From Candidatus Nomurabacteria bacterium (GTDB lineage Bacteria > Patescibacteriota > Minisyncoccia > Phycocordibacterales > SBAW01), in contig CALREW010000001.1 in the NCBI GenBank assembly GCA_943356415.1, positions 357,745 to 421,744 of the forward strand: 64,000 nt of DNA, given 5' to 3'. Below are positions 5,300 through 59,794 of this stretch, in pieces. Under the pieces are notes generated by a model. That model saw only the letters and a list, made by a program, of their open reading frames with translations. It was not told the DNA's origin and made no database searches. The stretch's first letter is position 1. Each line of letters begins with the position of its first letter. The translations under genes were made by a program, and so were the position numbers.

Positions 5300-5332
5300 C
5301 AAAAAACACCCCGCCGAGCGAGGTGTTTTTTG
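5300..5332. terminator. A-tract/11-bp stem/T-tract hairpin between the micro-ORF and the secA ATG (terminator- or attenuator-like)
   Basis: caaaaaacacc-ccgccgagcga-ggtgttttttg, flanked by an A-run and a T-run. Confidence 0.45.
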
Positions 5333-5344
5333 TCGTGCCTGAGA

Positions 5345-5410: not shown

Positions 5411-5610
5411 AGTGGTAGCGTTTTTTGTAGTTCTGCATCGATCGACCTCGCGTTGTGCGCATGTGTGATACATGTGCGCAGGCGTATTGTTCGATGTCTT
5501 GCTCTAAGTATCGCGCGTGCACACCTTCGTTACAATGCATTGCACGATTTTTTTGTGGATAACTTCGCGCGATGTTTTTTTGCGCGCATGTTCCAAAAAA
5601 CTATTTTATT

Positions 5611-6648
5611 TCAAAGCGTATTGCCCATCTGCGCACCGTGCATGATAACTACTTCCGGTTCAAGTTCTATGTTAACCAGTGCAAAAACTTTTTCTTTAAC
5701 TTCGAGTGCGAGATTCCGCACGTCACGCGCAGACGCTCCACGATCTGCAACAAGTGCGAGTGCTTGTTTTTCAAAGAGTCTCACCGTGCCGCGACGGTAC
5801 CCGCGCAATCCAAGCGCATGATCAAGAAGCCACGCGACAGGTATTTTTATTTCATCAGTTTCTGGCACTGGAAATACGGGCAATCCAGGAAAACGCGCAA
5901 TAAGTGCGTCGGCCTGCACCCGCTCTACACTCGGATTTCTAAAAAATGAACCGGCAGTCCCTTCGCGAGAGAGGTCTGGGAATTTGCCTGCACGTATGGC
6001 AACGACCGCCTCACGCACTTCTTGCAGTGAAGGCGCGGTGTCAGTAAAACGCTCCCGCAAATCGCGGTATGCAGTATTGGCACTACCTTCATGAGAGAGC
6101 TCAAACTGCACTCCGAGTATGACGAAGCGGTTAGGGTTTTTCTTGAACATCGATATGCGGTAGCCGAAGCCACACTCAGCCTTTGTGATGCGTCGGACTA
6201 ACATCGCCTGGCGATCGAACACATCAACAAATGAGAGATGCTGGGAAAGTGCAGCTCCGTATGCCCCAATATTTTGCACAATAGCACCACCAATACTTCC
6301 CGGTATTGCTGAGAGATTTTCAAGACCCCACAACCCGCGTTTTACTGACTCATCAACAAGAGCATCCCACGACACGGACGCTCCTGCATTAACCTCTACG
6401 ATGTTATTCCCTTCAGTGAAAGAAAGGTCATTAAAACGAGGAGCTATAAAAACACCCTCAGCTTCACCATCATCTGCAAGGATGTTTGCTCCCCCTCCGA
6501 TAACGACAACTGGGAGTTTCTTCTGTTCTGCAAATAAGAACGCTTCCCCTATTTCCTCAGGAGTTGCAACTTCAATAAAATAGCGAGCGCTGCCACCGAC
6601 CATAAACGTCGTTCGAGGAGCAAGCGGTTCGTGTTCGAGAATAGTCAT
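5611..6648 (-). CDS. murB: UDP-N-acetylenolpyruvoylglucosamine reductase MurB
   Basis: N-terminal FAD-binding domain (TTFMVGGSARYF...VVVIGGGANIL) and C-terminal MurB domain. Confidence 0.9.
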   Translation of the reverse strand: MTILEHEPLAPRTTFMVGGSARYFIEVATPEEIGEAFLFAEQKKLPVVVIGGGANILADDGEAEGVFIAPRFNDLSFTEGNNIVEVNAGASVSWDALVDESVKRGLWGLENLSAIPGSIGGAIVQNIGAYGAALSQHLSFVDVFDRQAMLVRRITKAECGFGYRISMFKKNPNRFVILGVQFELSHEGSANTAYRDLRERFTDTAPSLQEVREAVVAIRAGKFPDLSREGTAGSFFRNPSVERVQADALIARFPGLPVFPVPETDEIKIPVAWLLDHALGLRGYRRGTVRLFEKQALALVADRGASARDVRNLALEVKEKVFALVNIELEPEVVIMHGAQMGNTL

Positions 6649-6672
6649 GAACGGCGCCTGAGGAGCAACTAG

Positions 6673-8886: not shown

Positions 8887-8938
8887 GTGGCCATACTATA
8901 CCACCATCAAGTCAGCGACCATCAACGACTGCTTATGC

Positions 8939-9418
8939 TCACGATTGAGGCGTATGAGGAAGTGGTGCCGTTTTTTCTTCGCGAAAAAGGACAAATTTGA
9001 AGAGGAGGAACGTCACGACCGAAAAAATAAGGATGACTGAAGCAATGACCACAAGGTACCAATTAACACCGACGAACGCGGTGACGTGTTTGACGACGTA
9101 CGCCTGCACATACGTCAACACAAGTGAGTAGACCAAGAAAATGACGAGTCGACGCGTATGATCACCTTTTGTTTTAAAGGTGACAGCCGTATGCAGCACA
9201 AAATTGTAGAGAAGATTCGCCGCAAGGCCAATAAGATAGGCTGAAAAATAGTGTTCGCGCCCAAATACCAGCTCAGCAAAAGCGGCCGTGATACCGAGAT
9301 TGATAGCCACTCCTGTCGCTCCAACAACAAAAAAGTGAAGATACCGCGTACGCACAAGCAGGCGATACCACCATAGTGGATTAAAAAACTCAGCGGACGG
9401 ACGGTCAGTAGTCGTCAT
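8939..9418 (-). CDS. gtrA: GtrA-family small membrane protein (polyprenyl-P-sugar flippase component)
   Basis: 159 aa, 4 TM, YRLLVRTRYLHFFVVGATGVAINLGI... typical GtrA-like fold. Confidence 0.75.
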   Translation of the reverse strand: MTTTDRPSAEFFNPLWWYRLLVRTRYLHFFVVGATGVAINLGITAAFAELVFGREHYFSAYLIGLAANLLYNFVLHTAVTFKTKGDHTRRLVIFLVYSLVLTYVQAYVVKHVTAFVGVNWYLVVIASVILIFSVVTFLLFKFVLFREEKTAPLPHTPQS

Positions 9419-11876: not shown

Positions 11877-13270
11877 ATAGTGTTCAAAGTGGAAGCGGGT
11901 GGGACGTTTCTTTTTGTATTAAGAACAAGCGCAGCCGCCCCGAGAATCATCACCCCAGAGATAGGCAGTCGATATCGAGCGTTAGAAACCGGTCCCGTAA
12001 GTAGCGCGAAGTAAAGAACGAGTACCGCACCTAAGAGGACGAGTGGTCGCAATCGTCTCGTCCACAATTCGACAACAATGCCTACAAAATAGAGCACCGT
12101 TACCATGAACCAAAATCCGCTCCCAATCACTAGAAGGACAACGGCGAGTGCTCCCGTGCGTATATACGTCACGATAGCTTTCATATTGCCCGAAAGAATT
12201 AGACTCGAAATGTTAGGAGGTGCAACGAGGGGTACCCCGGATATTCGGGCAATTTCACGCAATCCATCAGTGAGGAAAAAAGGAACGGTTTTTGCAACAT
12301 GAAAGAACAGATAGGTATATTCGTGACCTCGTATCACTTCTCGGAAGTTGCTCGTAAAGACCGGCGCTCTTGAAAGCGAGAGTGCTTCATCGCGAGGAAG
12401 AGAGTCCTGCTCTGCTTTAAATGCAGTCAGCACGGCCTCCCCCTTCATATCTGGGTAGTCTGCGAGGTATGCAGGGGCATTGTAGATCATCAGGTTTGCT
12501 GCGCCAACTGAAGATACCCCCCACGATCCAAAAAATTCGTGATTACGTAGCATCCACGGAAAAACGATAACTGCAGTCGCACATAAAAGAAGTACCGCTT
12601 TTTTGAAGCGAACACCTGCTGACATCCCAGGCGCAATAAGCACGTACCCCGCGTAAAGCGCTGGCAAAAAGACAGCGATGGGACGGACAAGCACGCTCAC
12701 GCCAAGTACGACGCCCGAGGAGACAATAAGTAAACTTTTTTTATGCATCCTTCCCCGCTCAAGCAATACAAGCGATCCCAAAAAAAGACAGGTGAAGAAT
12801 GCGTCCGAGAGAAGAGACGCCGAGAAGAAAAGACGCGTCGGCTCAAAAACGAATATAACCGCTCCCCACCACGCTGCGCGCTCGCTGTACGACTTAAAGA
12901 GCACATATAAAAGCACGGGTGCGATGCTCACCAGAATTGTCTGCACGAAAAGAACGGCGATCCAGCTACGACACAGTGCGTAGAGAATGCTCAGGGAAAA
13001 AGGGTACCCGGGCGCACGGAAACTCTCAGGAGCAAACGGGGTCGTGGTTGAGAACGTAAATGCTGATTCTTCGAGCAAATGCGTTGCAAGTATTTGATAC
13101 CCGCGTGCGTCCCCGGTGAGACGTACCATATCGAGCCCTTTTATCTGCGTGAACCATAAAGCGCCGCCTGCAAAGAGCACGCTGACAACAAGAGAAAGGA
13201 GTCCGAGCGTAAGTTCCTTCTTATACACCGTACGCCAGGCACGCATACGCTTACTGTACCTTACGAGCAA
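11873..13270 (-). CDS. ArnT/PMT-like (GT39/GT83-type) GT-C glycosyltransferase
   Basis: 465 aa polytopic protein. N-terminal loop GDARGYQ...FRAPGYPF resembles the DE/arginine-containing first loop of ArnT/PMT enzymes. Confidence 0.65.
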   Translation of the reverse strand: MLVRYSKRMRAWRTVYKKELTLGLLSLVVSVLFAGGALWFTQIKGLDMVRLTGDARGYQILATHLLEESAFTFSTTTPFAPESFRAPGYPFSLSILYALCRSWIAVLFVQTILVSIAPVLLYVLFKSYSERAAWWGAVIFVFEPTRLFFSASLLSDAFFTCLFLGSLVLLERGRMHKKSLLIVSSGVVLGVSVLVRPIAVFLPALYAGYVLIAPGMSAGVRFKKAVLLLCATAVIVFPWMLRNHEFFGSWGVSSVGAANLMIYNAPAYLADYPDMKGEAVLTAFKAEQDSLPRDEALSLSRAPVFTSNFREVIRGHEYTYLFFHVAKTVPFFLTDGLREIARISGVPLVAPPNISSLILSGNMKAIVTYIRTGALAVVLLVIGSGFWFMVTVLYFVGIVVELWTRRLRPLVLLGAVLVLYFALLTGPVSNARYRLPISGVMILGAAALVLNTKRNVPPASTLNTI

Positions 13271-13985
13271 CGGCTATAAGGGATACTCCCCAAGGCAGTG
13301 GCCCCACTCGTAGTAGGAAACGCTCAAAACCGAAGAGGAGCGCGAGCGGGGCGTTGAGGAAACCTGGGGTGCTGGAAAAGTCACTTTCTTTCTTGCGCAC
13401 ATTCAATGCGTTACTAGCAAGACGCACAAGAGCAATCGCAGGAAAAAGAAAGAAATTGTAGTAACTCACAAACGCCGGGGTAAGACCTGCTCCTTTGAGT
13501 CGTTCTACCAGTTCAGCTTTGCGATATCTCCTACGATGATGGGCCAATTCATCGTGCCCACTCCACAAAAATCTAAATGCTGGCACCGTGATAAGCACAA
13601 TACCTCCAGGGGCAAGCGCCTTGGTCACTGCACGCAAGGCGCTGTGGTCATCATCGAAATGTTCGAGAACGTCGAGCAACGTGACAATGTGATACTCATT
13701 GTCTTTAACAAGAGGTGACGGGAAGGACGCCTCAATGAGGTTCGCACTCGGCGCCTTCTCTTTTGCAAAACGTATTGCTTCCTGCGAAGGCTCAATCGCA
13801 TCGACAAGAAACCCGTGTTGACTAAATTGCTGTGCATTGATGCCGGTGCCAACACCGACGTCGAGCAGACGCTTCCCCATCGGTTTGAAGCGTGAAAGGA
13901 GATCAAATAAAACGGCGCGCCTCCCCCTAAACCACCAATGTGCCTCTTCAAGTGAGGACATCTCTGCATAGAGGTGTTTTTCCAT
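13251..13985 (-). CDS. class I SAM-dependent methyltransferase
   Basis: Motif I LLDVGVGTGIN, post-I acidic residue and motif II. Confidence 0.8.
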   Translation of the reverse strand: MEKHLYAEMSSLEEAHWWFRGRRAVLFDLLSRFKPMGKRLLDVGVGTGINAQQFSQHGFLVDAIEPSQEAIRFAKEKAPSANLIEASFPSPLVKDNEYHIVTLLDVLEHFDDDHSALRAVTKALAPGGIVLITVPAFRFLWSGHDELAHHRRRYRKAELVERLKGAGLTPAFVSYYNFFLFPAIALVRLASNALNVRKKESDFSSTPGFLNAPLALLFGFERFLLRVGPLPWGVSLIAVARKVQ

Positions 13986-13988
13986 AGA

Positions 13989-14726
13989 TTATGCGTATGC
14001 GCCCATCCACGCGCGAATACGTATGCGTGCAAGCCCCATCAAAGATCGGTACACCTCACGGAATGGTCGAATGCGGGAATCTGCGTCGTCCGTCCACACC
14101 ACGGGTATTTCTACGTAGTGGTGTTTGCGTACGTGAGTGACATAGATAAGCTCCGCCTCAGCAACAATATGCATCTCATATTGGTGCGCAAATATGTCTG
14201 CCAATGCGTTCTTACGGAACATCTTAAAACCGAGTGCAAAGTCCGTAATATTCCACATCCAAAAAATAATCCTGGTCAGATACAAAAATCCGTAGCCAAG
14301 AAATACGCGCAGAGGTGGCTGCCACACGAGAATTTTCGACTCAGGAAGCTCTCTACTACCGAACACTGCGGCCAGAGTTGGGTCGGCATCAAAAAGCGCA
14401 ACTGCCCGCCCTATGGCCTCCTCAGCAACTGATCCATCTGCATCAGTCTCAAGCACCAAGGAGCCTCGAGCGCGGAGCATTGCGTTTTTGATCGTCGGCG
14501 TGCGACCCCGATTTATGCCATCAGAGATAAGCTCTAGTTCCGGATGGGTTTTTTGAAGTTCTCTTACGACTGCAGCCGTGCGGTCCTTACTCCCATCATC
14601 GGCAATAATGATTTCATAGGAACACTGCAAGGTAGGCAAATATGCAAAGAGCTTCCGAAGTGTCGGCGGAAGCCGACGCTCTTCGTTGTATGCAGGTATC
14701 ACAATTGAGAGATGCGGTTCAGTCAT
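13989..14726 (-). CDS. GT2 polyprenyl-phosphate sugar synthase (GtrB/DPM1-like)
   Basis: LSIVIPAYNEERRL...IIIADDGSKDRT. Confidence 0.85.
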   Translation of the reverse strand: MTEPHLSIVIPAYNEERRLPPTLRKLFAYLPTLQCSYEIIIADDGSKDRTAAVVRELQKTHPELELISDGINRGRTPTIKNAMLRARGSLVLETDADGSVAEEAIGRAVALFDADPTLAAVFGSRELPESKILVWQPPLRVFLGYGFLYLTRIIFWMWNITDFALGFKMFRKNALADIFAHQYEMHIVAEAELIYVTHVRKHHYVEIPVVWTDDADSRIRPFREVYRSLMGLARIRIRAWMGAYA

Positions 14727-16146
14727 GCTTCTTCACCTCCTCATGGTACACGCGCTCAACATTTACGTCCCACAGGTTGTGGTTAGCTCCTTGTATGTTC
14801 TCTACCGCAAGCATTGCCGTGAGCATCGCATGGTCCTGATTGTTGTACCGATGCATACCGTTGCGCCCCACCGGATAGACGTTGCTGAGCTTCGCAAAGG
14901 CTGCATGAATGGTCGGCATAGCCGCCTCGTAGGCATCATCGTAGACCGGATATGTTTTCTCTATCCGTGCCGCAGCACCATCGATGACATCCTCCTTTTT
15001 TGCAAGACCAATGGCTTCAATCTCATTCGAAGCAAGCTCGATAAGTTCCGCGTCCGTTTTCTTCCAAATAGCGTCGGTGGTAAAACAAAAGTACTCAAGA
15101 CCAAGACAGGTAGTCCCATTATCTGGCGTCATATACGGAGACCAGTTATTAAAATTCTGAATGCGTCCCACCGCGACTTTCGGCTCGTGGATATATATCC
15201 AGGTATCAGGAAAGAGATCGGTTCGCTTCAAGATAAGTGCCACGGTGATGAAGTCACGGAAGGTCAGCGTATGTGCAGCCGCGAGGTCCTCCGCGCTCAT
15301 AGCAGGCGACATGAGATCAAACAACTCTGCAATAGGGATGCTGGAGATAACCGACGAGACCGGTACCGTCATCTCACCCTGAGGCGTAGCGATGGTCGCT
15401 TCATATACCACTCCCCCTTTGTGGGAGAGACGCGTAGGACGAGCATTAAAATATATTTTTGTCAGTCCGGTAGAGAGGGCTTTCTCGAGCGTTTTCTCCC
15501 ACATCATTCCTGGGCCCAGTTTTGGGTAGTTAAACTCTTCGATAAGACTCTTTATCTCGTTGTCCTTATTACCAAAGAGGGCCGTGCGTATGAGACTCGT
15601 CACGGAGAGACCCTTAATGCGCTGAGCAGCCCACGAGGCTTTAATCTTAGTGCACGGTATCCCCCACACCTTCTCCGTATACGACTTAAAAAAGGTGCGG
15701 TAGAGTCGCCAACCAAAATTATTAACAATATAGTCCTCGAACGAATCTTCCTCTTTGCGTTTGAATACTTTCGCTTTTACGTAACTCAAGCCTGCAAGAA
15801 AACTCTCCCAAAATCCAAGTTTCAAAACCACATCGAATGGCTTTATGGGGTAGTTAAAAAACTTTCGTTTGTAGTAAACGTGAGAGAGTCTTGGTCGCTT
15901 TATAAAATCATCTCCAAGAATCTCGCGCCACATCTCGTTAACGCGTTCAACTTTAGTGAAAAAACGATGTCCCCCGATATCAAAATGATATCCCTTATAT
16001 TTTATGGTTCGAGAGATGCCGCCGACTATCCCCTCTTTTTCAAGAATAATCGAACGCTTCCCCGCCTTGGCAAGTTCATACGCCGCGGTGAGGCCCGCAG
16101 GGCCTCCACCTATAATAAGTACTGCGTTTTCATCGGATGAATTCAT
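14719..16146 (-). CDS. UDP-galactopyranose mutase (Glf)-like FAD-dependent enzyme
   Basis: N-terminal GGGPAGL dinucleotide motif. Downstream blocks HRFFTK..VW, SYTEKVWG and C-terminal GRNGMHRY parallel the Glf motifs HIFHT..VW, GYTxKQWG and GRLGTYRY. Confidence 0.6.
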   Translation of the reverse strand: MNSSDENAVLIIGGGPAGLTAAYELAKAGKRSIILEKEGIVGGISRTIKYKGYHFDIGGHRFFTKVERVNEMWREILGDDFIKRPRLSHVYYKRKFFNYPIKPFDVVLKLGFWESFLAGLSYVKAKVFKRKEEDSFEDYIVNNFGWRLYRTFFKSYTEKVWGIPCTKIKASWAAQRIKGLSVTSLIRTALFGNKDNEIKSLIEEFNYPKLGPGMMWEKTLEKALSTGLTKIYFNARPTRLSHKGGVVYEATIATPQGEMTVPVSSVISSIPIAELFDLMSPAMSAEDLAAAHTLTFRDFITVALILKRTDLFPDTWIYIHEPKVAVGRIQNFNNWSPYMTPDNGTTCLGLEYFCFTTDAIWKKTDAELIELASNEIEAIGLAKKEDVIDGAAARIEKTYPVYDDAYEAAMPTIHAAFAKLSNVYPVGRNGMHRYNNQDHAMLTAMLAVENIQGANHNLWDVNVERVYHEEVKKHD

Positions 16147-17741
16147 GAGCGAGGTTTGCGAGCGATAATGTAGAGATGCGCACTGACCGCTTCAGCACCC
16201 GGTAGTGACGCAAACAGAAGATCGAATATCTTCAAAGGCCCGAGCACCAGCATAAAGATGTGTGCCAAAAACGGCGCAATCTTGCGTGATCCAAACGAGA
16301 AGATAACCCCAAGCCAGTACGCAAAAAACATAAGGAACGCACTCCAGGGACCTGAGCGTACACCTAACTCTATAACTTCAAATCCGGGAAATAGTTCTTT
16401 AAGACCACTTGTCGTAAAGCGATTGAAGTCGTCAGGAGAGGCGTGATACGGATGAATAAACGGCGCGCTTGCATACACAACGCCGCCAGGCTTCAGCACC
16501 CGCATAAGTTCTTGAGCTACCGCTCCCGGATTCGCCACGTGCTCAAGAAGCGATTCTGTCGCAAGACCGTCAAATGTCCCGTCCTCAAACGGCAGGCGCT
16601 CAGCGCTCGCCACAATATCAACACCGGGAAATGGGAAGATGTCCACATTAATAAATTGAAGGGAGATACGGTCAGGACCCGATCCTATATCAGCAACAAG
16701 TGCATCTTTTCCGACGTGGGCGAGCAGTTTCTTGGGTCCGTTTTGAAGCATGAGCACCGGGCAGAAGAGTCCCCAAATTGCGTAGTAGAGGAGCGGAAAT
16801 TGTTTCAGAAACGATTTTAGCCAATTCACCCCCGAGAGATGCTCGTCTTCGTGGAGTGAGTACGACTGTCCGTCAGCGAGGATAGGCACGTCCTGCGATG
16901 AAACCTCAAACTGGTGTCCCACCGGACACGCTGCTTTTTCTCCTATGCTCAAAGTTTCGCCACACAAAGGGCACCTGAGGTGCGGACGTACCTTCTCTAA
17001 GCGACCTGCTGCCCCCTGCATCGCAGCCCCTGGCTTGCGTAGGTGCGTGAGTCGATGACTAAGGAGTAAGAACATCGAGCGAAACCCGTCTTTGTAGCGT
17101 ATCTTCTTCCCTTCCTCTACCGTGCGCGGTGCATGGCTAATCGGTACCTCGACAATGGCATACCCCTGAGCAGCCGCGTCGCCGATAAAGAGGTAGTCTG
17201 CTTCAAAACCATTGCCGATAAAATGTGCCTTTCTCGCAACCTCTTTTGAAAAAAGCTTATAGCACGTCCATGCGTCGGTCAGATGCAATCCATATAAGAG
17301 ATTTACAAACTTCGTACTTCCCCAGACCCCAAGACTAATGACTAGAAAATCCTTAATGCGGTGCCAGTGGGTTTCCATATTGCGTGAACCAAACACAATA
17401 GGTGCGCCCGTTTTTTCTACAACTTCAAGTAGCTTGCGAATTTCTGCTGGATTGTACTCAAGATCGGCATCCTGCAAGATGAGATACTCGCCCGTTGCAT
17501 GCGCAATCCCTGCTCTCTCGGCAACACCTTTCCCACCATTTTTTGCTTGAAAGATGACCTGGTAGCCGGGCTTTTCCTTGTATTTCGAAAGAAGGGTCCG
17601 TGTTGAGTCTTTTGATCCGTCATCAACAACGATGATTTCTTTTTCCCAATTGCCAAAATCTGCTTTTTCAACACGAAGAAGCAGCTCTTCAATGGTTGCT
17701 TCTTCGTTGTAGCACGGGATTATGACACTGACGGTCCTCAT
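16143..17741 (-). CDS. tri-domain fusion: N-terminal GT2 glycosyltransferase, central Cys4 zinc ribbon, C-terminal class I SAM methyltransferase
   Basis: The N-terminal GT2 part reads VSVIIPCYNEEATI...VVDDGSKDST..LQDADLE. The ribbon is CPLCGETL...CPVGHQFE. The C-terminal MTase part is VADIGSGPD...FDGLATESLLEHV. Confidence 0.8.
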   Translation of the reverse strand: MRTVSVIIPCYNEEATIEELLLRVEKADFGNWEKEIIVVDDGSKDSTRTLLSKYKEKPGYQVIFQAKNGGKGVAERAGIAHATGEYLILQDADLEYNPAEIRKLLEVVEKTGAPIVFGSRNMETHWHRIKDFLVISLGVWGSTKFVNLLYGLHLTDAWTCYKLFSKEVARKAHFIGNGFEADYLFIGDAAAQGYAIVEVPISHAPRTVEEGKKIRYKDGFRSMFLLLSHRLTHLRKPGAAMQGAAGRLEKVRPHLRCPLCGETLSIGEKAACPVGHQFEVSSQDVPILADGQSYSLHEDEHLSGVNWLKSFLKQFPLLYYAIWGLFCPVLMLQNGPKKLLAHVGKDALVADIGSGPDRISLQFINVDIFPFPGVDIVASAERLPFEDGTFDGLATESLLEHVANPGAVAQELMRVLKPGGVVYASAPFIHPYHASPDDFNRFTTSGLKELFPGFEVIELGVRSGPWSAFLMFFAYWLGVIFSFGSRKIAPFLAHIFMLVLGPLKIFDLLFASLPGAEAVSAHLYIIARKPRS

Positions 17742-21570: not shown

Positions 21571-22605
21571 ATGACTGTCTCTAAGCTGGCCATTGCGGCC
21601 AAAGACGTGGCTGCCGCTCGCGCGGTAACGCCGATCATCTCTGAGCTTCGGCGCCTCAACCTGGAGCTGCGTATCGAGCTGTATGTCGAAGGGTTCGCCG
21701 CTGGCGAGCATTTCGGCATCGCGCCCACCCTATCCTCAAAGAAGGGCGGCTCCCTCAATTTGGCAGAGGTGCTCAAGCGGCTCGGAGAGTTCGACCCGGA
21801 CGTGTTACTCGTCGGATGCTCAACGTCCGACGAAGGCCCTTCGATCGAGCGAGCGCTCATCGAATCCCTCAGTGATGAGCAGCGCCGCAAGATCAAGATT
21901 GTGGCCGTCCCCGACTACTGGCGCGCGGAACATCGGCTGGGTCTCTCTGTCGATTTGCTGCTCGTCATCGATGATGTCGCCAAGCAGTTGGCCGTGCAGA
22001 ATGCGGCCGCAGCCGAAGAGCCGGTAATCATCGGTGACTTCGTGGCATCGGACGTGGAGGTGCAGAAGTGGATCGCCGGGTCCTTTGAAAGTGCCCTGCC
22101 CAAGGGGCTCGATCTCAACAAGACGCTTCTGGTCGTGGGGCAAGGACTACCGTATCTCCCCGACCTCATGAGTCTCTCCGTCGACTGCCTCAAGGAGTCG
22201 CCCGGCTGGACATTGGTGCCACGTCTCTTCCACCCCAAGAAAAAGCCGGACGATGGCCTGGTGGAGACCTGGAACCGGCTCTCAGAGCGATACCGCGACC
22301 GCATCGTAGAGCTCGATGCGCACATCTTCTCAACCGATGCGCTCGCCGTTGCCTGCGGCGCGACACTCTCTGGCTTCTCGACGACACTGCGGTACGCCGC
22401 CGCAGCCGGCAAGCTCGCGCTCTCGGGTGACACCGAAGCGGTGCGTGCCGGACGTTTGAAATCCACCAGCATAGAGCTCTACCCGCCGGCGATAACTGGC
22501 GAAGCGCTCGCGGTGACGCGGGGTATCCCGCTGCACAGCATGGGGTCCACCGTGCGCCCCTTCAACCCAACACTCGCCGCCAAGCGCATCTTGGCCCTCA
22601 AGTGA
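21571..22605 (+). CDS. GT-B fold protein with C-terminal HP(K) motif (TagF/KpsC-S/sialyltransferase/WecB-like); paralog of 38404..39438
   Basis: Sits in a GC-rich island with GGAGGG 10 nt upstream of the ATG. Shares ordered motifs with 38404..39438 (N-terminal Rossmann start, AVxDYW, FHPKxKxDxxxTW, xADxxAxxxSxxLxxAAAGKLAL). Substrate not assignable. Confidence 0.4.
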   Translation: MTVSKLAIAAKDVAAARAVTPIISELRRLNLELRIELYVEGFAAGEHFGIAPTLSSKKGGSLNLAEVLKRLGEFDPDVLLVGCSTSDEGPSIERALIESLSDEQRRKIKIVAVPDYWRAEHRLGLSVDLLLVIDDVAKQLAVQNAAAAEEPVIIGDFVASDVEVQKWIAGSFESALPKGLDLNKTLLVVGQGLPYLPDLMSLSVDCLKESPGWTLVPRLFHPKKKPDDGLVETWNRLSERYRDRIVELDAHIFSTDALAVACGATLSGFSTTLRYAAAAGKLALSGDTEAVRAGRLKSTSIELYPPAITGEALAVTRGIPLHSMGSTVRPFNPTLAAKRILALK

Positions 22606-30878: not shown

Positions 30879-32549
30879 TCAGGCTGTGCTGCTTTGCGTG
30901 AGGTTGCCCACGCGCAGGATGTTTGGGCCTGGCATGCCCATCGAGTGCTCGAAGGTAATGCCGGGCGCGCCAGGATTGAACGGGATGTTGAGCAGAGCGC
31001 GGACGCCGTCCTCCAGATCGCCTCGCAGTCGGACGAGGTCCTCCCGCGAAAGCGTGTCCGTGTAGACGTACGACTGGTACCCGCCCTCGGGGTCGCCCTT
31101 GTAGTAGTAGGCCTTCGCCAGAGGGTCGAACGCGTCGAGATAGAGGCGGTCTCCCGTTCCACCCCCACGCAGCGGTACCGTGTAGACCCAAGGCCCTTCA
31201 GGGTGCGCTGGATCGACCGGCTCGGCGTCGTCGTAGTAGGGCGTGCCGGGATAGCACGTGATCAGCGAGACGTCGAAGTCGTTCGGTTTCTGGGCGAGAA
31301 GCCACTGGCGAGTCTCCTCGATAGTTGCTTCCGTTTCGCCCGGATGACCGACCGACATAAGTGCCTTCACCTTGATCCCGTGCTTCTGGGCAATCTGCAG
31401 GCAGCGAGTGTTGTCTTCAGCCGTCGCCTGCTTGTGGATGTTCTTGAGAATCCTCGGTGAGCCCGACTCGAACCCGACGAGAATCCAGCGGAAGCCGGCA
31501 GCGTACATCGCGGCGGCCTGCTCTTCGTTGAAGAGCTCGGCCTTGATGAACCCGCGCAGACGCCACTCAACCCCCAGCTCTTCTTGCTTGCGGGCGATAG
31601 CCTTCATGAGGCCGACGAGTTCCTTGTTCACGTTGAGTTCGTCGTCGTAGAACATGAAGCCCGTCTTGCCCGTGGTCCTCCACAGGTGCTCCATCTCCGC
31701 GACAATGTCCTCGGTCGTGCGCGTACGGATGCGTCGAAGCATCGAAGACTTGCGTCCCCCGCAGAAACGGCAGCCGAACGGGCAGCCAAGTTGCGCAATC
31801 AGCGAGATCGCCGGGAAGCCCTCGATCGTGTAGCGATAGCTGGCGGCGTCCACCAGATCCCGAGCTGGCCACGGAAGCTCCTCGAGCTTCTCATTGGTCA
31901 GGAAGAGATCAGACGATGGCTCGTCGGCGTCGATGAGTTTCGGAGCGCCCGGATGGCACGCTTCGAAAATGGCCTCTTCGCCGTCGCCGGCAACGAGGAC
32001 ATCGAAGAGCTCGCCAAGTTCTTGCATGTGCGTTGCCGCACGGCGGAACTGCGCGTTACGCTTCGCTTCCCCCTTGGCAGCCGCATTCACGAGCGTGACG
32101 TGCGGACCGCCGAGGATGATCTTCGAGCCCGGCTTCTTCTGCCGCAACACGTTGACGATTCCGGCAACCGCCGGCATCTGCGGCGTGGTCGCCGTGATGC
32201 CGAAGAGCGTCGCGTCGCTGTGAGCAACGAAATACTCCACGGTCTCCAGGTAATTCTTCACGCCGGAGAGGTCGAGAACCCCGACCTCCGCTCCCGCCGC
32301 ACGCAGCACCGCCGCGATACGCAGGACTCCGAGGAACATGAAGACCCGCTCGTCGAGCAAGAATGCCGACGGCGGAATGATGAGCGTAATTGCCTTCGGC
32401 ACGACCTTCTCCGGAGCCCGAGCTCCGCGAAGGTCCGCCTGTGCGGTCTCACGCATGAGCAGACTCCTTCCAAAAAGTGAACCGATGTGCCCGTGCCCAA
32501 TAGAAAGGGCGGCCGAAGTCACAATAGCAAGTGCGTACTCGAACCGCAA
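30879..32549 (-). CDS. cobalamin (B12)-binding radical SAM enzyme (class B rSAM, probable methyltransferase)
   Basis: N-terminal B12-binding Rossmann domain, then CPFGCRFCGG (CxxxCxxC). GC-rich island. True start may be the internal Met (MRETAQ...). Confidence 0.8.
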   Translation of the reverse strand: MRFEYALAIVTSAALSIGHGHIGSLFGRSLLMRETAQADLRGARAPEKVVPKAITLIIPPSAFLLDERVFMFLGVLRIAAVLRAAGAEVGVLDLSGVKNYLETVEYFVAHSDATLFGITATTPQMPAVAGIVNVLRQKKPGSKIILGGPHVTLVNAAAKGEAKRNAQFRRAATHMQELGELFDVLVAGDGEEAIFEACHPGAPKLIDADEPSSDLFLTNEKLEELPWPARDLVDAASYRYTIEGFPAISLIAQLGCPFGCRFCGGRKSSMLRRIRTRTTEDIVAEMEHLWRTTGKTGFMFYDDELNVNKELVGLMKAIARKQEELGVEWRLRGFIKAELFNEEQAAAMYAAGFRWILVGFESGSPRILKNIHKQATAEDNTRCLQIAQKHGIKVKALMSVGHPGETEATIEETRQWLLAQKPNDFDVSLITCYPGTPYYDDAEPVDPAHPEGPWVYTVPLRGGGTGDRLYLDAFDPLAKAYYYKGDPEGGYQSYVYTDTLSREDLVRLRGDLEDGVRALLNIPFNPGAPGITFEHSMGMPGPNILRVGNLTQSSTA

Positions 32550-36434: not shown

Positions 36435-37292
36435 CTATTTCTTCCCGACACGTGCTCCATATACTCCCCGCAAAAGACCAAGGTCTTTCTTTGTCGAAGT
36501 TAAAAGGGCAATATTTTTTGCTTCAAGTGCGCGCAATACGGCAAGACCTGTTTTGTCCTTTGTAAGGATCTGCTGGTACATACCGCGCGCTGCAGCCATG
36601 TCTTTGATAAAACAGCCGCCACCTGCTCCACGGCCGCTTTTATGAAGCGGCCGTGCGTACCGATTGGAAATAAAGGGGTCTGCAAGCGCTGCTTTCTCGA
36701 TTGGTTCCCAATCGCAGCCAAGTGCTTTTGCAAAGTCGTACATCAGATTAAAAAGGATGACTTGCGCGTAGCCGCTTAGATTGTGGGTGTACTTAAACAC
36801 TTCTGCTTCGTCACTTGAGCACGTGAGAACAAACGGAGCCTTAGGCAAAATGGCGTGCACGAGCTTTGCCGCTTCCACGTGCTTCTTTGTCTTACGAGGC
36901 AAACCAACGATATTCTCAGCTGGATGTGCCGCATCATGCGCAGCGGTCCCCACACTAAGGAATTCCGGAGAAAAGAGGACGGTGATATTTTTGTGAGCTG
37001 ATTGGAAACGTTTGGTTGTACCCGGCAACAAGGTCGACTTGATGACCGCGATCTTTCCCGACCCCACAAGCGAAAGTGCCTGCTTCACAATGCCCGCATC
37101 AAAACCCTTTGGGGTCGTCGGTGTTGGCACGCCGATAAACACAACATCGCAGTCTTTGATAAATGCCTTGTTACGAACATAGGGTTCTTCAAGCGAATAC
37201 CGTACGACAGAAAAGCCACGACGCTCAAAATCGTTCGCGTAGTTTTTCCCAACGTATCCCTGACCGATAAATCCTATGCGTGGCTTTTTCAT
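36435..37292 (-). CDS. UDP-glucose/GDP-mannose dehydrogenase family protein, short form lacking most of the C-terminal UDP-binding domain
   Basis: N-terminal GFIGQGYVG, FSPEFL and catalytic-Cys motif GGGCFIKD are present. Only ~55 aa follow the Cys motif, so the ~285 aa product is truncated compared with typical UGDH. Confidence 0.6.
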   Translation of the reverse strand: MKKPRIGFIGQGYVGKNYANDFERRGFSVVRYSLEEPYVRNKAFIKDCDVVFIGVPTPTTPKGFDAGIVKQALSLVGSGKIAVIKSTLLPGTTKRFQSAHKNITVLFSPEFLSVGTAAHDAAHPAENIVGLPRKTKKHVEAAKLVHAILPKAPFVLTCSSDEAEVFKYTHNLSGYAQVILFNLMYDFAKALGCDWEPIEKAALADPFISNRYARPLHKSGRGAGGGCFIKDMAAARGMYQQILTKDKTGLAVLRALEAKNIALLTSTKKDLGLLRGVYGARVGKK

Positions 37293-37365
37293 GAAAATTG
37301 CACGCGCTCTGCGTGCACGCCCCAACACCCTCACAGCATACAACACCAAGATACTATGCGAAGTT

Positions 37366-37459
37366 TCAAACGAAAAAGCCGTCCCCAGAGGGACGGCTTC
37401 TCCCAGCCTTGCGGCTGAAATGTGTGGGCGAACCGCGTGTGCGGTTAGCCCAGGAGCTT
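37366..37459 (-). repeat. copy A of a ~90-bp 3' element (three hairpins including an intrinsic terminator) following gene 37445..38224
   Basis: Near-identical to 38323..38418 (3 substitutions plus a 2-nt indel over ~85 nt). Confidence 0.85.
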
Positions 37460-38224
37460 AAGCTTGTCGAAAGCCCTGCAGACGCTGAGCGCGTCGGCGA
37501 ACTGCTTCGCGATCTTCTCGCGCGGACGGTTCCGAGGGCTCATCGCCGGCACAGGGACGACCTTCACGTTCAGTCCGGCGGCGATGGCTCCGAGTGCTAT
37601 CATGCCATCGAAGCCCCAGGACACCTCTTCGCCACGGGCCCGCTCGACCTCCGCGTGAATCAACATAGCTTTGTCGAGCACACACCGGAGCACATTCTTC
37701 CCCCGGAAGAGCTGAAAGCCGTGGGCGCACGAGAGGCGCAGTTTGCCGCCGCTCGTCTGCCCATAGAGTTCCGGGAAAACATCCCTGTGCATGACCTCGT
37801 CCGCGGACCCGTAAATGAGGCCGTTGGACGAGTGGCTGAAGTCGAGGTCGCCGATGACCATGTCGGCCCTTTTTTCCTCCAAGGCGCGGCAGAGGTCCCT
37901 GATCTTGCAAATGGGATGCTCCGCCGTGTCCAGGCGAACGATGGTTTCTTCGGACCCACCGCAGAGCACTGCGGTGTCATAGCCAGCGCGCAGAGCGCCA
38001 GCAAGTCCGCGGACGTGCGAGTAGACGCCGACCATACCGAAACCCTTCTTGGCGGCAACACGCGCGAGTTCGACATCTTCAGCAGGGTCGGGGCAGCCAT
38101 TGACCGCCACGATGATCCTTGTCGAGGTGTCTTTCATCTCCTTGCGCAGCTGCGCAAGGAACGAGCCTTCTTCCTCGGCGGCTTTGATAGCCTTTCCTTG
38201 GAAGTCGGGCACGACGATAATCAA
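37445..38224 (-). CDS. hypothetical protein, possibly a GT-A fold glycosyltransferase; TTG start
   Basis: GC-rich island. Starts IIVVPDFQ (GT2-like first strand). Contains GDLDFS acidic motif. Family assignment weak. Confidence 0.3.
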   Translation of the reverse strand: MIIVVPDFQGKAIKAAEEEGSFLAQLRKEMKDTSTRIIVAVNGCPDPAEDVELARVAAKKGFGMVGVYSHVRGLAGALRAGYDTAVLCGGSEETIVRLDTAEHPICKIRDLCRALEEKRADMVIGDLDFSHSSNGLIYGSADEVMHRDVFPELYGQTSGGKLRLSCAHGFQLFRGKNVLRCVLDKAMLIHAEVERARGEEVSWGFDGMIALGAIAAGLNVKVVPVPAMSPRNRPREKIAKQFADALSVCRAFDKLKLLG

Positions 38225-38322
38225 CTTGTCCCAACCTTTCCGGGATTTTTACCCGAAAATATAATACTACAGATTTTAATAAAAATCAATATCTCTATCT
38301 GCTCATCATTTTAAGACTCCTC

Positions 38323-38418
38323 TCCAACGAAAAAGCCGCCCCCAGAGGGACGGCTTCTCCCAGCCTTGCGGCTGAAATGTGTGTGGGCGAACCGCGTGTG
38401 AGGTTAGTCCAGGAGCGC
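38323..38418 (-). repeat. copy B of the ~90-bp 3' element following gene 38404..39438
   Basis: See copy A. The terminator stem here carries a substitution that becomes a U-G wobble in minus-strand RNA. Confidence 0.85.
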
Positions 38419-39438
38419 GAGGATGGCTTGCGCTCCAATGGACGGATTGAGCGGCTGCAGCTCGTACTTCGGCCACTGCCGCTTAAAGAACTCGTCGAGC
38501 GGTTTGGGTTGCGCCAGCACCGGGTAGCCGCCCTGCATCATAAGCGGCGACTTCTTGAGACCCGCTTGGCGGAACAGCTCACTAGCCGTGCTCTGGTTCC
38601 AGAGCGTGAGGGCAAGCTTCCCCGCCGTTGCCGGCCGCATCAAAGTCGAACTGTAGCCGGACGCCACGCCGTCGGCGTACTGGATGATCTCGTCGGTCGG
38701 CTCGGACATCATATGGACGCGGCCGCACATCGTGAGCGGCTCGAGCACCCGGTCACACCACACGCCCCAGGTCGTCCCATCTTCCCGCAGGACATCCTTG
38801 AACTTCGGATGGAACTTCGGGATCAGGATGACACGCTGCGAGGTTTCCAGGATCGAGCTGACCAGATGACGGAGTGCCGGATCGGCATCCGGGCCACCGT
38901 CAGGATAGACGAGCAACTTGTCGCTCGCCTTCTCGCGAAGCGAGTCCATCCTCGCCTTGAGATCCGGGTTGGCCTTAACCGGTGTGATGCCGGCGAAGCC
39001 AACCTGTACGATCGAGACTTGTCTGCCGGGCCACCGCTGCCGGACGAGCGTGTCGCTCACCGCGTCGATGGTGAGGTAGAGATCGGCGGGCTGCTCAGCC
39101 CGCTTTTCCACACCCCAGTAGTCCACAGCATGCACCAGAGGAACATGGTGCGAGAAGCTGCGTGCCTGCCGATCGAATTCGGCCTCCATCACGCGCGGCG
39201 AAGAGATGCCGGTGACGAGCGCGTCGGGGTTGAGCTTGACGAGGATGTCGCGAGGGGAATCGCCTTCGTCGACGAGTTGGTAGGGCTGCAGGCTCTCGTT
39301 GAGCTTTGCCGTCGCCCTGCCGTCCTTCTCGATGAGCAGATGTACTTCATGGCCGAGGCCGCGAAGTTCCTGGACCATGGGGAGCAGCACATTGGCTGGC
39401 CCCATGTCCCGAATGGCAACAACGATTCTCTTTTTCAA
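38404..39438 (-). CDS. GT-B fold protein with HP(K) motif; paralog of 21571..22605; TTG start
   Basis: FHPKFKD ... YADGVASGYSSTLMRPATAGKLAL. AGAGGTG upstream of the TTG start. Confidence 0.4.
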   Translation of the reverse strand: MKKRIVVAIRDMGPANVLLPMVQELRGLGHEVHLLIEKDGRATAKLNESLQPYQLVDEGDSPRDILVKLNPDALVTGISSPRVMEAEFDRQARSFSHHVPLVHAVDYWGVEKRAEQPADLYLTIDAVSDTLVRQRWPGRQVSIVQVGFAGITPVKANPDLKARMDSLREKASDKLLVYPDGGPDADPALRHLVSSILETSQRVILIPKFHPKFKDVLREDGTTWGVWCDRVLEPLTMCGRVHMMSEPTDEIIQYADGVASGYSSTLMRPATAGKLALTLWNQSTASELFRQAGLKKSPLMMQGGYPVLAQPKPLDEFFKRQWPKYELQPLNPSIGAQAILALLD

Positions 39439-39516
39439 GGCGCACCTCTAGTGCTAGGGTCAATTTCCAGAATGGACCGTACTACAAATTTTCTAAACCG
39501 TCAATAGAAAGGCTCC

Positions 39517-40587
39517 CTACGCTTTCGTAGTCCGAGCTGTATCAATCACATCCTCACAATATCTTTGTATATATTCCTTTTCAGTTTGGTACGGGTACGA
39601 ATGCAGAACTCCTGTGCGGGGACCTTCGGTACTCCATGTTTGAAGTGCTATAGAAAAATCTTGTTGCGCCACAACAGCTGCTCCCGCTTCACGTGCCACG
39701 CCAACATCGGTTGAAAGCACCGGCACGCCTGCCGCGAGCGCTTCGATAATAACCATGCCGTACCCTTCATACTCCGATGGCACAAGTACGATATCTGCAA
39801 GTTGGTAGTACGGAGCTGAATCAGTATCGCCTTCAAAGAAAACACTGCTCTGCACACCACGCTCTTTTGCTAAACGTTCGAGTGAGCGCCTCTCACTTCC
39901 TTCTCCCAAAATAATGAGGCACGAGTCGGGGATATGCGCGCGAGCAAATGCATCAACGGCAAGCGAAACATTTTTCTCTGCTTCAAGACGCGAAACAACA
40001 AGACATACTGTTTTGTACTGTGAAAATCGCGCAGTGAGTTCAACAGGAGCTTGCGCATTTTTAAAGCGTTCGATGTCAACAGAAATCGGAAGTACGCTAA
40101 TAGGCGCATTCACATTGAAATGCTCGAGCACATCACGCTTAGTACGTTCCGAGACTACACGAATTCCTGAAGCGTAGGAGAGCACTCTCCGCGCAATATG
40201 CATCCGCACTTTATTGAGTATTGAGCGTCTGAATGCAGGAGAAAAAAGATCGGTGTGTATTTGCACATGAAGCGGCACGGCAAAGTATTTCGCAAGCATG
40301 AGTCCAACAAGACCTGATTCGAACGGATCCTGTACCGATATAACGCTTGGTTCTGGAAGTTTCTTTCCAATACGCACCGCATCAGTGACGTAGAGGAGTC
40401 GCGATAAGGAGTTCGTTGGATACACCTCCAGTGATCCGTCTTTTACCTCACTCAAGCCCTGCGACGCGCGAGAAAAGACAATGATGTGAGAAGCCTCGAA
40501 ACACTGCGCGTATGCCCGCACTCGCTTCCCCGCCCGACTGGCAGGATCAAGAACTGTTCGATCACTTCCTATCGTGAGGACACGCAT
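39517..40587 (-). CDS. GT4 glycosyltransferase
   Basis: VLVPSEYEGYGMVIIEALAAGVPV (EX7E). Confidence 0.8.
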   Translation of the reverse strand: MRVLTIGSDRTVLDPASRAGKRVRAYAQCFEASHIIVFSRASQGLSEVKDGSLEVYPTNSLSRLLYVTDAVRIGKKLPEPSVISVQDPFESGLVGLMLAKYFAVPLHVQIHTDLFSPAFRRSILNKVRMHIARRVLSYASGIRVVSERTKRDVLEHFNVNAPISVLPISVDIERFKNAQAPVELTARFSQYKTVCLVVSRLEAEKNVSLAVDAFARAHIPDSCLIILGEGSERRSLERLAKERGVQSSVFFEGDTDSAPYYQLADIVLVPSEYEGYGMVIIEALAAGVPVLSTDVGVAREAGAAVVAQQDFSIALQTWSTEGPRTGVLHSYPYQTEKEYIQRYCEDVIDTARTTKA

Positions 40588-58038: not shown

Positions 58039-58743
58039 TCAGCCGAACTTCCAGCCCAGGCGAACCTTGAACTTCTGCCCGGCACTTCCCGTCACCGGAT
58101 CGGTGGCGATCATAAGCGCCCGGGTGTAGAGATCCTCGGCGAGGCCGATCATCCCACGACGGCGATGCAGAAGCGCGGCGCGCAGGAGCACCCGGCAGAA
58201 CTGCCGGAGCGCCTGGACGTTGTCTTGCTCGTTCTCGACATCTCGCCGTAGCCGAAGCGCGCCGTTGAGGTAGTCGAGCACCTCTTCATCTGACCGTCCG
58301 GAGTAACAACAAACCTCTGCCATACCGATGCGCAGCAGCGCTTCGCTGTGCGGGACAGGATTCTTCATAAGCCCCGCGAGTAGGAAGTTCTCGGCGACGA
58401 AGAAGTTGCGGTGGGCGATCATGACCGTGCCGATGACGTCGCACTGGCCGTCACTGAGCCGGTCAATATTTCCACCGATAATCCTGATTGTCCGTTGCAC
58501 CTCGCCCACTGCCAGGCTGAGGAACCCTGGGACGATGCGATACGAGTACCACACCGAAGCGCGCTTCACAGCGGCATCTTTGTGTCTGCCAGCCACCTCG
58601 AGCTCCTTCGCCTCGCGAAGCCCTTCGATCAAGCCACCGAGCGTGTGGTCCCAGATCTTCTGCCGCAGGCTAACCTGCGCCTCAGGCGGCGGTTGAGTCG
58701 CCATGTTGCCTCTCCAAGCTACAGGCCTCCATAGGCCTTCCAC
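58039..58743 (-). CDS. hypothetical protein (GC-rich island)
   Basis: 234 aa. No recognisable family. C-terminus ...KFKVRLGWKFG. Confidence 0.35.
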   Translation of the reverse strand: MEGLWRPVAWRGNMATQPPPEAQVSLRQKIWDHTLGGLIEGLREAKELEVAGRHKDAAVKRASVWYSYRIVPGFLSLAVGEVQRTIRIIGGNIDRLSDGQCDVIGTVMIAHRNFFVAENFLLAGLMKNPVPHSEALLRIGMAEVCCYSGRSDEEVLDYLNGALRLRRDVENEQDNVQALRQFCRVLLRAALLHRRRGMIGLAEDLYTRALMIATDPVTGSAGQKFKVRLGWKFG

Positions 58744-58888
58744 GCAACATTATGTCACAAAATATTTAATAATCAATATATCGCGTTTTCTCTTTACTAA
58801 CTCACTTTTCTCTGCGATTGTAATGCGCGGAACCGGTAGAGCCGGCTTTTTGTAACCCTGGATCACTGCTAAAGAAAGGCAGGGGCGC

Positions 58889-59794
58889 ATGCTCCGTAGA
58901 AATACCCCAAACAGCGACATCGCCCACCACGCAACTCGCGTAGGGCCGATGAAGATGGGTGCGGTGTCCGTCGGCGCATCGCTCTTCCCGGGACGTATCG
59001 ATGGCGTACAGACAAACTGGACTCTCGCGCGGCTCGAACTTGATGCTCCAGGCGTCGAGCGCGTCGTGCGCCTGCGTCAGGTTGCCGAAGCGCTGGGGCT
59101 GAAAACCATATGGTCCCCCTCCCCAGTGAAGTTCAACGGCCGCATCTGCTCGCGCAGCGAGCTGAAGATCCGCGTCTCGATTGACGCCACGCAAGACATC
59201 GCCATCATGCGTGGCATGGAAGCCGATGGGTGCCTCATCGCTCCGACCGAATCGCTCATCATGAGCGTCGGTGGATGTGCGGTCGTGGTCATGGAGTATC
59301 AGGGGCGCGTGGTCGCCGCGCATGCGGGACTCAAGTGCTTCTACGACCACGAGTTGGCGATCTCGGGCACGAAGACCCCAAACCGCGAACATGAAAGCGT
59401 CGTCGAGGCGGCAGGCCGAGCACTCACAACCGGTGGCGCTGCGCTTGACCCGACACAACTTCATGTGCGCGTACTGTTTCCGCTTTCGCGGAAAGTGCAC
59501 ACGCATTCGCTGAAGGACACGGTGCACGGAGCAAACAACGAACGGCTCCATCAACACTTCATCAAGAAGTGGGGCACCGGCTGTGGTGTGCGGCTCGAGC
59601 AGGATGGCCACACGCTCTCCTTCGATACGCTCGCCATCGTCCGAGCCCAGTGCGAGAGGTATTTCAAACTCGACCCGCTACAAGTCGAGCGCGTGGGGCC
59701 CTTCGCGGATGCCATTCCCTACGCCCATCACACTCGTCTTCCGGGCGAAGCGGGCAAGATGCGCAACCTGGTCGTCATCAAGAACTTGGGCTGA
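58889..59794 (+). CDS. hypothetical protein, possibly divergent PgeF/YfiH (DUF152, laccase-domain) family
   Basis: DGCLIAPTE...GGCAVVVMEYQGRVVAAHAGLKC parallels the YfiH DALIT...ADCLPVL...VAAAHAGWRG core. Otherwise weak. Confidence 0.35.
   Translation: MLRRNTPNSDIAHHATRVGPMKMGAVSVGASLFPGRIDGVQTNWTLARLELDAPGVERVVRLRQVAEALGLKTIWSPSPVKFNGRICSRSELKIRVSIDATQDIAIMRGMEADGCLIAPTESLIMSVGGCAVVVMEYQGRVVAAHAGLKCFYDHELAISGTKTPNREHESVVEAAGRALTTGGAALDPTQLHVRVLFPLSRKVHTHSLKDTVHGANNERLHQHFIKKWGTGCGVRLEQDGHTLSFDTLAIVRAQCERYFKLDPLQVERVGPFADAIPYAHHTRLPGEAGKMRNLVVIKNLG

Follow-up and report, generated by a model that had tools for sequence, protein, structure and literature searches.

A probable local duplication of a gene 3′-end and its terminator beside a strain-variable gene in a Patescibacteria glycan locus

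Genes and direct repeats at the locus

The DNA analyzed here, referred to throughout as the window, is a 64-kb stretch (64,000 nucleotides) of contig CALREW010000001.1 from a Candidatus Nomurabacteria bacterium, and contains a cell-envelope glycan region of this member of the Patescibacteria, the candidate phyla radiation (CPR). Two neighboring genes on the minus strand, designated geneA and geneB, end in almost the same sequence. The two copies of this ~95% identical direct repeat, designated E, are located at 37366-37459 (copy A, at the end of geneA) and at 38323-38418 (copy B, at the end of geneB). We estimate a probability of roughly three in four that E is the 3′-untranslated region (3′-UTR) and Rho-independent terminator of geneB, duplicated locally and now also ending geneA.

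GeneB (38404..39438, minus strand) encodes a 344-aa glycosyltransferase-like protein with a GT-B fold that ends LLD*, and geneA (37445..38224, minus strand), which has a TTG start codon, encodes a 259-aa glycosyltransferase-like protein with a GT-A fold. Neither protein has a Pfam match. The AlphaFold2 (AF2) models both have a pLDDT (predicted local distance difference test) of 90.5, and in Foldseek searches the geneB model matched the GT4 enzymes BshA and HepE (E-values about 1e-9) and the geneA model matched DPMS, GtrB and ArnC (E-values about 1e-7 to 1e-8). As modeled, the fold of geneB resembles those of these GT4 enzymes, and that of geneA resembles the catalytic domains of DPMS, GtrB and ArnC. 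The preliminary description of this locus, made from the sequence, regarded both genes as acquired and GC-rich, and they are compositionally foreign, with a GC content of 0.61 (geneA) and 0.62 (geneB) and a GC content at third codon positions (GC3) of 0.77-0.79 versus 0.42-0.50 in the neighboring host genes. No homology was detected when geneA and geneB were compared, which rules out a tandem gene duplication as the origin of the pair, and a phage-conversion origin for geneA is not supported as there are no relatives of geneA in viral contigs.

Copy B is separated from geneA by an AT-rich spacer of 98 nt (38225..38322, minus strand; GC 0.33). This contains a promoter-like, sigma-70-like site, TTGATT (38289-38284) and TATTAT (38266-38261) with 17 nt between them, followed by a small hairpin and then a ribosome-binding-site-like GGAAAGG ahead of the geneA TTG. 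A duplication of the region upstream of geneB was considered as the source of the spacer and dropped, the local alignment having a p of about 0.02, uncorrected for 6 comparisons. In the first part of the spacer past copy B (38295-38325, minus strand), there is also a strong Shine-Dalgarno-like sequence, GGAGAGGAG, and a 4-codon mini-open reading frame (mini-ORF), AUG AUG AGC AGA UAG, that may be the remnant of a gene 5′-end from an earlier context of geneA, or may encode a leader peptide.

The two copies of E differ by three substitutions and a 2-nt CA insertion/deletion (indel), and strict homology extends from 37369 to 37457 in copy A and from 38326 to 38416 in copy B. The repeat search returned two collinear blocks, 37366-37426 versus 38323-38383 (61 nt, 97% identical) and 37421-37457 versus 38380-38416 (37 nt, 95% identical), set out of register by the (CA)n indel. 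In plus-strand coordinates, the copy A/copy B differences are 37449 C/38408 T, which changes the codon GGC to GAC; 37442 C/38401 A, in the inner stem of hairpin 1 (below); a TG indel near 37426/38383; 37382 T/38339 C, in the terminator stem; and 37368 A/38325 C, just beyond the T-tract. A 44-nt core pattern of E has two exact matches in the window, with zero expected from 100 shuffles, and a short-word blastn search with E detected no third copy and no partial copy in the window. The repeat search and the pattern count bear out the two near-identical elements of the preliminary description, and each does begin within the last codons and stop codon of a minus-strand gene (...KLLG* in geneA, ...ALLD* in geneB). 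Two independent Logan assemblies are 100% identical to the window, over 37397-38369 (L006) and 38354-40071 (L007), and both end exactly at the 44-nt identical core because a k=31 graph must branch there, as at any true repeat; with the sequence reproduced in both assemblies, the repeat is therefore real. Copy A directly abuts host DNA (TGAAACTTCG...) that is common to the relatives L008 and L012 described below. The two junction sequences are CGTT/GGAGAGG and AAGCTTAAG/CTCCTGG, with the junction marked by a slash.

Read on the minus strand, E consists of CUC CUG G(G/A)C UAA, which is the last three codons and stop codon of the gene (CTC CTG GGC TAA for geneA, CTC CTG GAC TAA for geneB), followed by hairpin 1, a (CA)n linker, hairpin 2 and an intrinsic terminator. 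In copy A, hairpin 1 (37426..37451, minus strand) is GGGCUAACCGC-ACAC-GCGGUUCGCCC and overlaps the stop codon at 37445-37447; its degraded counterpart in copy B (38385-38410, minus strand) has two unpaired positions. Hairpin 2 (37404..37417 in copy A, 38361-38374 in copy B, minus strand) is CAGCC-GCAA-GGCUG and has a GNRA loop. The copy A terminator (37369..37399, minus strand, with inverted-repeat arms at 37376-37399) has the stem AAGCCGUCCC/GGGACGGCUU, the loop UCUG and the tail UUUUUCGUU, and the copy B terminator (38326..38356, minus strand) has the same stem except for one U·G pair (38339), with the same loop and tail. The minus-strand consensus is AAGCCGUCCC-UCUG-GGG(A/G)CGGCUU followed by UUUCGUU, with a stem of 10-11 bp. 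For the 89-nt core of copy A, the folding energy is -53.3 kcal/mol (z = -7.2; range -6.9 to -7.2). Copy B folds at only -39.7 kcal/mol because its hairpin 1 is damaged, so that of the three hairpins previously attributed to each copy, all form as described in copy A but the first is largely lost from copy B.

In both copies, and in the single E of the related strains described below, there is a GC-rich stem with a short loop (-19.6 kcal/mol in copy A, -19.0 kcal/mol in copy B and in the relatives), and, on the gene's sense strand, the U-rich tract, UUUUUCGUU, comes directly after the stem. These features argue for a canonical intrinsic terminator on the gene strand of each copy, as originally proposed, and each copy of E most likely terminates the transcription of its gene. 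As in other Rho-independent terminators, the 10-11-bp stem has a 4-nt loop, an immediate U-tract and, upstream, a partly complementary A-rich stretch, and the structure is co-oriented with the gene and located 50-56 nt past the stop codon. What differs is that the E module, including three codons, is present twice (95% identical) after two unrelated genes. The stem-loops upstream of the terminator are reminiscent of the 3′-structures by which many bacterial mRNAs block exonucleases. Hairpins 1 and 2 are most likely at most accessory, for example as barriers to 3′-exonucleases, with hairpin 1 dispensable.

Related strains and the ancestry of E

GeneB and geneA occupy a slot between a GT4 gene and a UDP-sugar-dehydrogenase-like gene, designated DH. 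A DH variant (P0151), ~97% identical by eye, is present on 17 Logan contigs from the SRR247509xx runs. These contigs have about 97.8% nucleotide identity to the window on both flanks and the gene order GT4-geneB-one E-DH, without geneA. In L012, for example, positions 1040-9981 correspond to window positions 47265-38323, which include geneB and copy B, and positions 9888-16886 to window positions 37457-30448, which start with copy A; the two alignments overlap in L012 by 94 nt, and this overlap is the single E. The segment present only in the window is 957 bp long (37366..38322 or, equally, 37460-38418; minus strand) and is made up of the spacer, the body of geneA and one E. The protein cluster of geneA has a single member, from ERR5863124 only, and geneA was therefore not called in the assemblies of the relatives. 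At the sites that distinguish the two copies, the single E of the relatives has the copy B state three times and the copy A state once, and it differs from copy B by one substitution, at 38401. As this single E follows geneB, E is identified as geneB's own 3′-end, and the two repeats in the window as the bounds of a strain-variable geneA cassette.

The slot between GT4 and DH is variable among relatives. In L011, with a DH that is 71% identical, GT4 and DH are directly adjacent and overlap. In L008 and L009, with a DH that is 77% identical, the slot holds a geneA homolog alone. This is 40% identical to geneA, has a GC content of 0.57 versus 0.45 for its host, and has its own promoter, TTGACA-17-TAGAAT, and a terminator that is unrelated to E. 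Past this terminator, the host sequence TTTGAAACTTCG...GGTGTTGTAT resumes, the very sequence found after copy A in the window. Identity to the sister strain L012 over 47265-30448 is mosaic, and ranges from 100% to 76%, with 100% at 35508-33709, 86% at 41265-40966, inside a glycosyltransferase gene, and 76-95% over the radical SAM gene and the stretch that immediately follows it. Homologous recombination is evidently frequent in this CPR population.

Proteins of the geneB family align right up to their C-termini (ILALLD* versus VLSLLT*, VLSLLA* and ILALK*) and a geneB homolog in L001 uses CTC CTG ACG TAG at its 3′-end, on which basis the coding part of E is native to geneB. The tails of geneA homologs vary. 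P0008 ends ...CRAAATLKK*, aligned with ...CRAFDKLK in geneA, and because the geneA tail runs past the end of this homolog, its final LLG looks appended. Homologs of geneB and geneA elsewhere have 3′-UTRs with no relationship to E, but these too end in canonical hairpin-plus-T-tract terminators, which suggests that this type of signal is used in the Patescibacteria lineage.

Additional copies of E were sought with a structure-aware 41-nt pattern (26 specified bases) in genomes, metagenomes and viral contigs, with a 24-mer in metagenome contigs, and with a hairpin 1-gap-hairpin 2 pattern in genomes and viral contigs. No copy was found with the two patterns applied to each of 185,579 species genomes, the JGI metagenomes and the IMG/VR viral contigs, and blastn in 'distant' mode against plasmids and phages returned only 30-38-nt matches to generic terminator stems. 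The tally is two copies in the 64-kb window, one in the relatives and none in these public collections. In the preliminary description, E was thought to be a module that had travelled with each acquired gene. This does not agree with relatives that are ~98% identical and have one E after geneB and no geneA, nor with the unrelated terminators or 3′-UTRs of the geneA homolog in the slot of the 77% relative and of geneB homologs elsewhere. The outcome which that description itself named as contrary to its proposal, a simple local duplication of an element that is absent downstream of orthologous genes, is the one observed.

Three alleles of E can be compared structurally, copy A, copy B and the single E of the relatives, which folds at -45.5 kcal/mol (z = -5.1). 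Hairpin 2 is invariant in all three, as are 10 of the 11 terminator pairs. At the remaining terminator pair, copy A has U-A, and copy B and the relatives' E have U·G. These last two alleles (codon GAC) also share an A·C mismatch in hairpin 1, to which copy B adds an uncompensated G-to-U change. There are no compensatory changes among the three alleles, and so no covariation. The U·G wobble in the copy B terminator had been offered as evidence of preserved minus-strand pairing, but this is one transition and carries no weight because, wherever a transition falls in a stem, one strand has G·U and the other A·C. The single copy in the relatives also has U·G and, if taken as ancestral, U·G therefore came first and the U-A pair of copy A is the change.

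Origin of the second copy and alternative explanations

If the second E did arise by local duplication, E would be the native 3′-end of geneB, namely its last three codons, the stop codon and a ~75-nt 3′-UTR ending in a Rho-independent terminator with a 10-11-bp GC-rich stem, a 4-nt loop and UUUUUCGUU. Copy A would then be a second, locally derived copy of this segment that ends the unrelated, GT-A-fold geneA, with geneA and its own promoter-like spacer placed between geneB's E and the UDP-sugar-dehydrogenase-like operon. Given termination at each E, geneB and geneA would each be expressed separately, as insulated units of the glycan operon, and the sigma-70-like site in the spacer, together with E, would make geneA a self-contained promoter-gene-terminator unit. 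There are two scenarios for the origin of the duplicate. The spacer and geneA may have entered by illegitimate or homology-facilitated illegitimate recombination (HFIR; PMC3240628), with the geneB 3′-end copied in frame onto geneA near its native stop codon. As in HFIR-type indels, a foreign segment of 863 bp (spacer plus geneA) is located between direct repeats of resident sequence, close strains retain the unoccupied, single-repeat state, and the population is mosaic; in contrast to these, the duplicated segment is long (~92 nt) and corresponds to a functional unit, and the incoming gene is joined to it in frame. Alternatively, the two-copy state may be older, and the relatives may have lost geneA by recombination between the two copies of E. 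As the E of the relatives is copy-B-like up to the terminator single-nucleotide polymorphism (SNP), the crossover or conversion must then have fallen within the last ~13 nt. With recombination frequent in the population, either scenario is plausible, and the SNP pattern would fit a recent duplication, with copy A changing afterwards, as well as an older one with later loss through E x E recombination.

Several observations weigh against a local duplication, or require more than it provides. A simple terminator scan did not list E, which may be due to the extension of the stem into the U-tract. At both positions where a substitution separates copy A from the E of the relatives, copy A pairs more strongly on the minus strand (G-C in place of A·C, U-A in place of U·G); such gains are unexpected under neutral drift and hint at an older history or at structure under selection. 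With an older origin, copy A could be the copy that preserves the intact form. The bounds of the repeat are neatly those of a functional unit that begins three codons ahead of the stop and finishes with the T-tract, which a purely random illegitimate event does not predict. No convincing promoter was found for the DH operon downstream of E and, with a strong terminator ahead of it, the transcription of DH therefore needs explaining. The order geneB-E-geneA-E across the 44-nt core comes from the window assembly alone, as the Logan contigs do not bridge this core, and the copy count for the same genome covers 64 kb of a genome of at least 425 kb.

An artefact of assembly, in which a misjoin through the 44-nt core produced the tandem arrangement and geneB-E-DH is the true order, with geneA-E located elsewhere, might account for the independent Logan contigs that stop at the core and never bridge it and for the single-E arrangement in the relatives. 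It is, however, extremely improbable since copy-specific SNPs are linked to the flanks. L006 joins the copy B terminator allele to the spacer and the 5′-end of geneA, L007 joins geneB to the copy B 5′-alleles, and the DH flank in the window carries the copy A allele (A in the terminator) versus G in the relatives, as expected if geneA-E precedes DH; a misjoin would also need a 957-bp circle or a tandem array. A stable 3′-UTR-derived small RNA (sRNA), or a cis-regulatory RNA in which the three-hairpin structure is itself selected, would be compatible with termination, and the strong folds of copy A (z = -6.9 to -7.2) and of the relatives' allele (z = -5.1), the invariant hairpin 2 with its GNRA tetraloop and the two pairing gains in copy A could all be so explained. 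We nevertheless consider this unlikely. Rfam searches returned zero matches for E at the gathering threshold and, by E-value, only sub-threshold chance matches, the best (24.6 bits versus a gathering score of 36) being to the unrelated PYLIS family; copy B persists although its hairpin 1 has been lost through an uncompensated change; there is no internal promoter signal in E; E is not conserved outside one species-level population; and GC-rich sequence with a terminator folds strongly in any case. With no covariation, no Rfam match and hairpin 1 broken in copy B, the functional three-hairpin RNA module of the preliminary description is not supported.

It is also very unlikely that E is a site-specific recombination site that bounds mobile cassettes, such as an integron attC site, part of a cluster of attC sites lacking an integrase (CALIN) or a CPR-system analogue, with geneA and E moved together at the 3′ GTT. 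An attC site has end core sites, RYYYAAC ... GTTRRRY, that pair as the R box, and the attC sites of a sedentary chromosomal integron are often highly alike (PMC5027507). As for attC, E is located at a gene 3′-end, has a length within 57-141 bp, has the stop codon within CTAAC, as in many cassettes, and has a distal GTT. The repeats delimit a gene-sized unit, the strains differ by exactly one spacer-geneA-E unit and, if the relatives lost geneA, the crossover was in the last ~13 nt of E, which contain CG/TT. The start of E, G[G/A]CTAAC, conforms to RYYYAAC at 6/7 positions and its end, GTT[T/G]GA[A/G] (GTTTGAA or GTTGGAG), to GTTRRRY at 5-6/7, with both the AAC and GTT triplets present, and by manual inspection R-box pairing is possible at only 4-5/7 positions. 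On the same inspection, however, candidate L''/L' segments pair at only 3-4/7, with the would-be L' inside the terminator stem, and no L box, unpaired central spacer or extrahelical bases are apparent. DNA folds of both strands are three independent local hairpins, not one imperfect hairpin; no IntI, other integrase, transposase, REP-associated tyrosine transposase (RAYT), tyrosine recombinase or other recombinase was found among the about 50 window proteins scanned; there are two sites only and no array; a promoter-like spacer forms part of the cassette itself; the codons within E are homologous to the C-terminus native to the geneB family; and none of the collections scanned yielded a related site. 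The hairpins, the missing integrase and the two sites uphold the initial view that E is not an integron attC. Just as improbable is an undescribed, integrase-distant cassette system in Patescibacteria glycan loci, with promoter-gene-E units inserted and excised at the distal GTT. If this were true, surface-glycan diversity between strains would come from single glycosyltransferase cassettes, but nothing found here indicates a dedicated recombination system for E. We give equally little credence to a dispersed element of the repetitive extragenic palindrome (REP)/bacterial interspersed mosaic element (BIME) type or the miniature inverted-repeat transposable element (MITE) type, from a high-GC donor or from this genome, that landed independently at both gene 3′-ends. 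E is GC-rich, ~90 nt long (these elements being similarly sub-100-nt), forms multiple hairpins and is 3′-intergenic; the high-GC genes in the window form one compositional class (GC3 0.64-0.79), so that a common donor is conceivable, and MITE-like elements do occur in the lineage (L012:947-1039, with 16-nt perfect terminal inverted repeats). The two copies in 64 kb are, however, both at one locus, with one copy per ~21-kb locus in the relatives and none in the species genomes, JGI metagenomes, viral contigs, plasmids and phages searched. A REP is a single imperfect palindrome of ~20-40 nt, often clustered in alternating orientation and associated with a RAYT, a Y1 transposase, whereas E has three mutually unrelated hairpins in one orientation and no RAYT or other transposase was found among the window proteins scanned. 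Its ends, GCUCCUGG... and ...UUUUCGUU, are not inverted repeats, the repeat search having identified internal stems only, and there is no target-site duplication; E contains homologous geneB codons, and other high-GC genes in the window have different terminators. A REP or cassette-boundary element had been suggested initially. The second term is apt as a description, since the repeats do bound a strain-variable gene; a REP fails on copy number.

The locally duplicated geneB 3′-end is ordinary genome micro-evolution, a modest case in an operon that reveals no new RNA class and no new mobile element. It does provide, at nucleotide resolution, a case of a CPR surface-glycan locus that has gained or lost one accessory glycosyltransferase-like gene between ~98% identical strains. 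The incoming geneA, fused in frame to a copy of its neighbor's 3′-end and terminator, would be a self-contained unit and an example of modular operon evolution, and, flanked by direct repeats, such a gene becomes prone to deletion and variable between strains, here in an organism whose attachment to its host is probably mediated by the cell surface.

Other features of the window

The window encodes proteins with Pfam matches to SecA, MurB, Wzy_C, GtrA, two YfhO-like proteins, PMT_2, GT2, GT4, GT47, NeuB, cytidylyltransferases, Glyphos_transf, a Wzx-like flippase, a B12-radical SAM enzyme, a Mur ligase and a branched-chain ABC system, and homologs of the host genes are named as Kaiserbacteria, Paceibacterota or Patescibacteria in the source records. 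Foreign composition (GC about 0.61-0.62, GC3 0.64-0.78) is also a feature of at least four other genes. These are 21571-22605 (plus strand), a 26%-identical paralog of geneB; 30879-32549 (minus strand), the B12-radical SAM enzyme gene; and 58039-58743 and 58802-59611 (both minus strand), which have no Pfam match. The genes at 21571-22605, 30879-32549 and 58039-58743 each have their own GC-rich hairpin or hairpins and T-tract at the 3′-end, each unlike E. The composition of the high-GC genes suggests repeated acquisition from one high-GC source pool.

DH (36435-37292, minus strand) encodes a 285-aa protein with the N-terminal and central domains of UDP-glucose/GDP-mannose dehydrogenases, without the C-terminal domain, and this short form is retained at 60-77% identity across thousands of Patescibacteria proteins. 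Directly upstream of the DH AUG (37299-37317, minus strand) is a hairpin, UGCACGC-AGAGC-GCGUGCA, flagged by the scan as terminator-like and also present, with a different loop, in the 77% relative (L008, about 10001-10021), that could be a translational or attenuator-type element. The MITE-like insertion in L012 (947-1039, also in L013) is a 93-nt sequence between ABC-ATPase and TraG-like genes, with 16-nt perfect terminal inverted repeats (TATACCCCGTGAGATA/TATCTCACGGGGTATA) and an apparent TATAC duplication; the window has an empty site at about 47262 and no other copy.

Long ORFs on the plus strand are antisense to geneB (38377-39507, 376 aa) and geneA (37298-38314, 338 aa), and the gene caller used for the Logan contigs of related strains annotated the 376-aa antisense ORF over geneB (L012:8797-9927, minus strand). 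The sense proteins of geneA and geneB are present only in Logan records, though NCBI and ENA also hold the genome. Systematic mis-annotation of such high-GC genes is probable, and these records suggest that genes of the geneA and geneB type are under-represented in protein databases.

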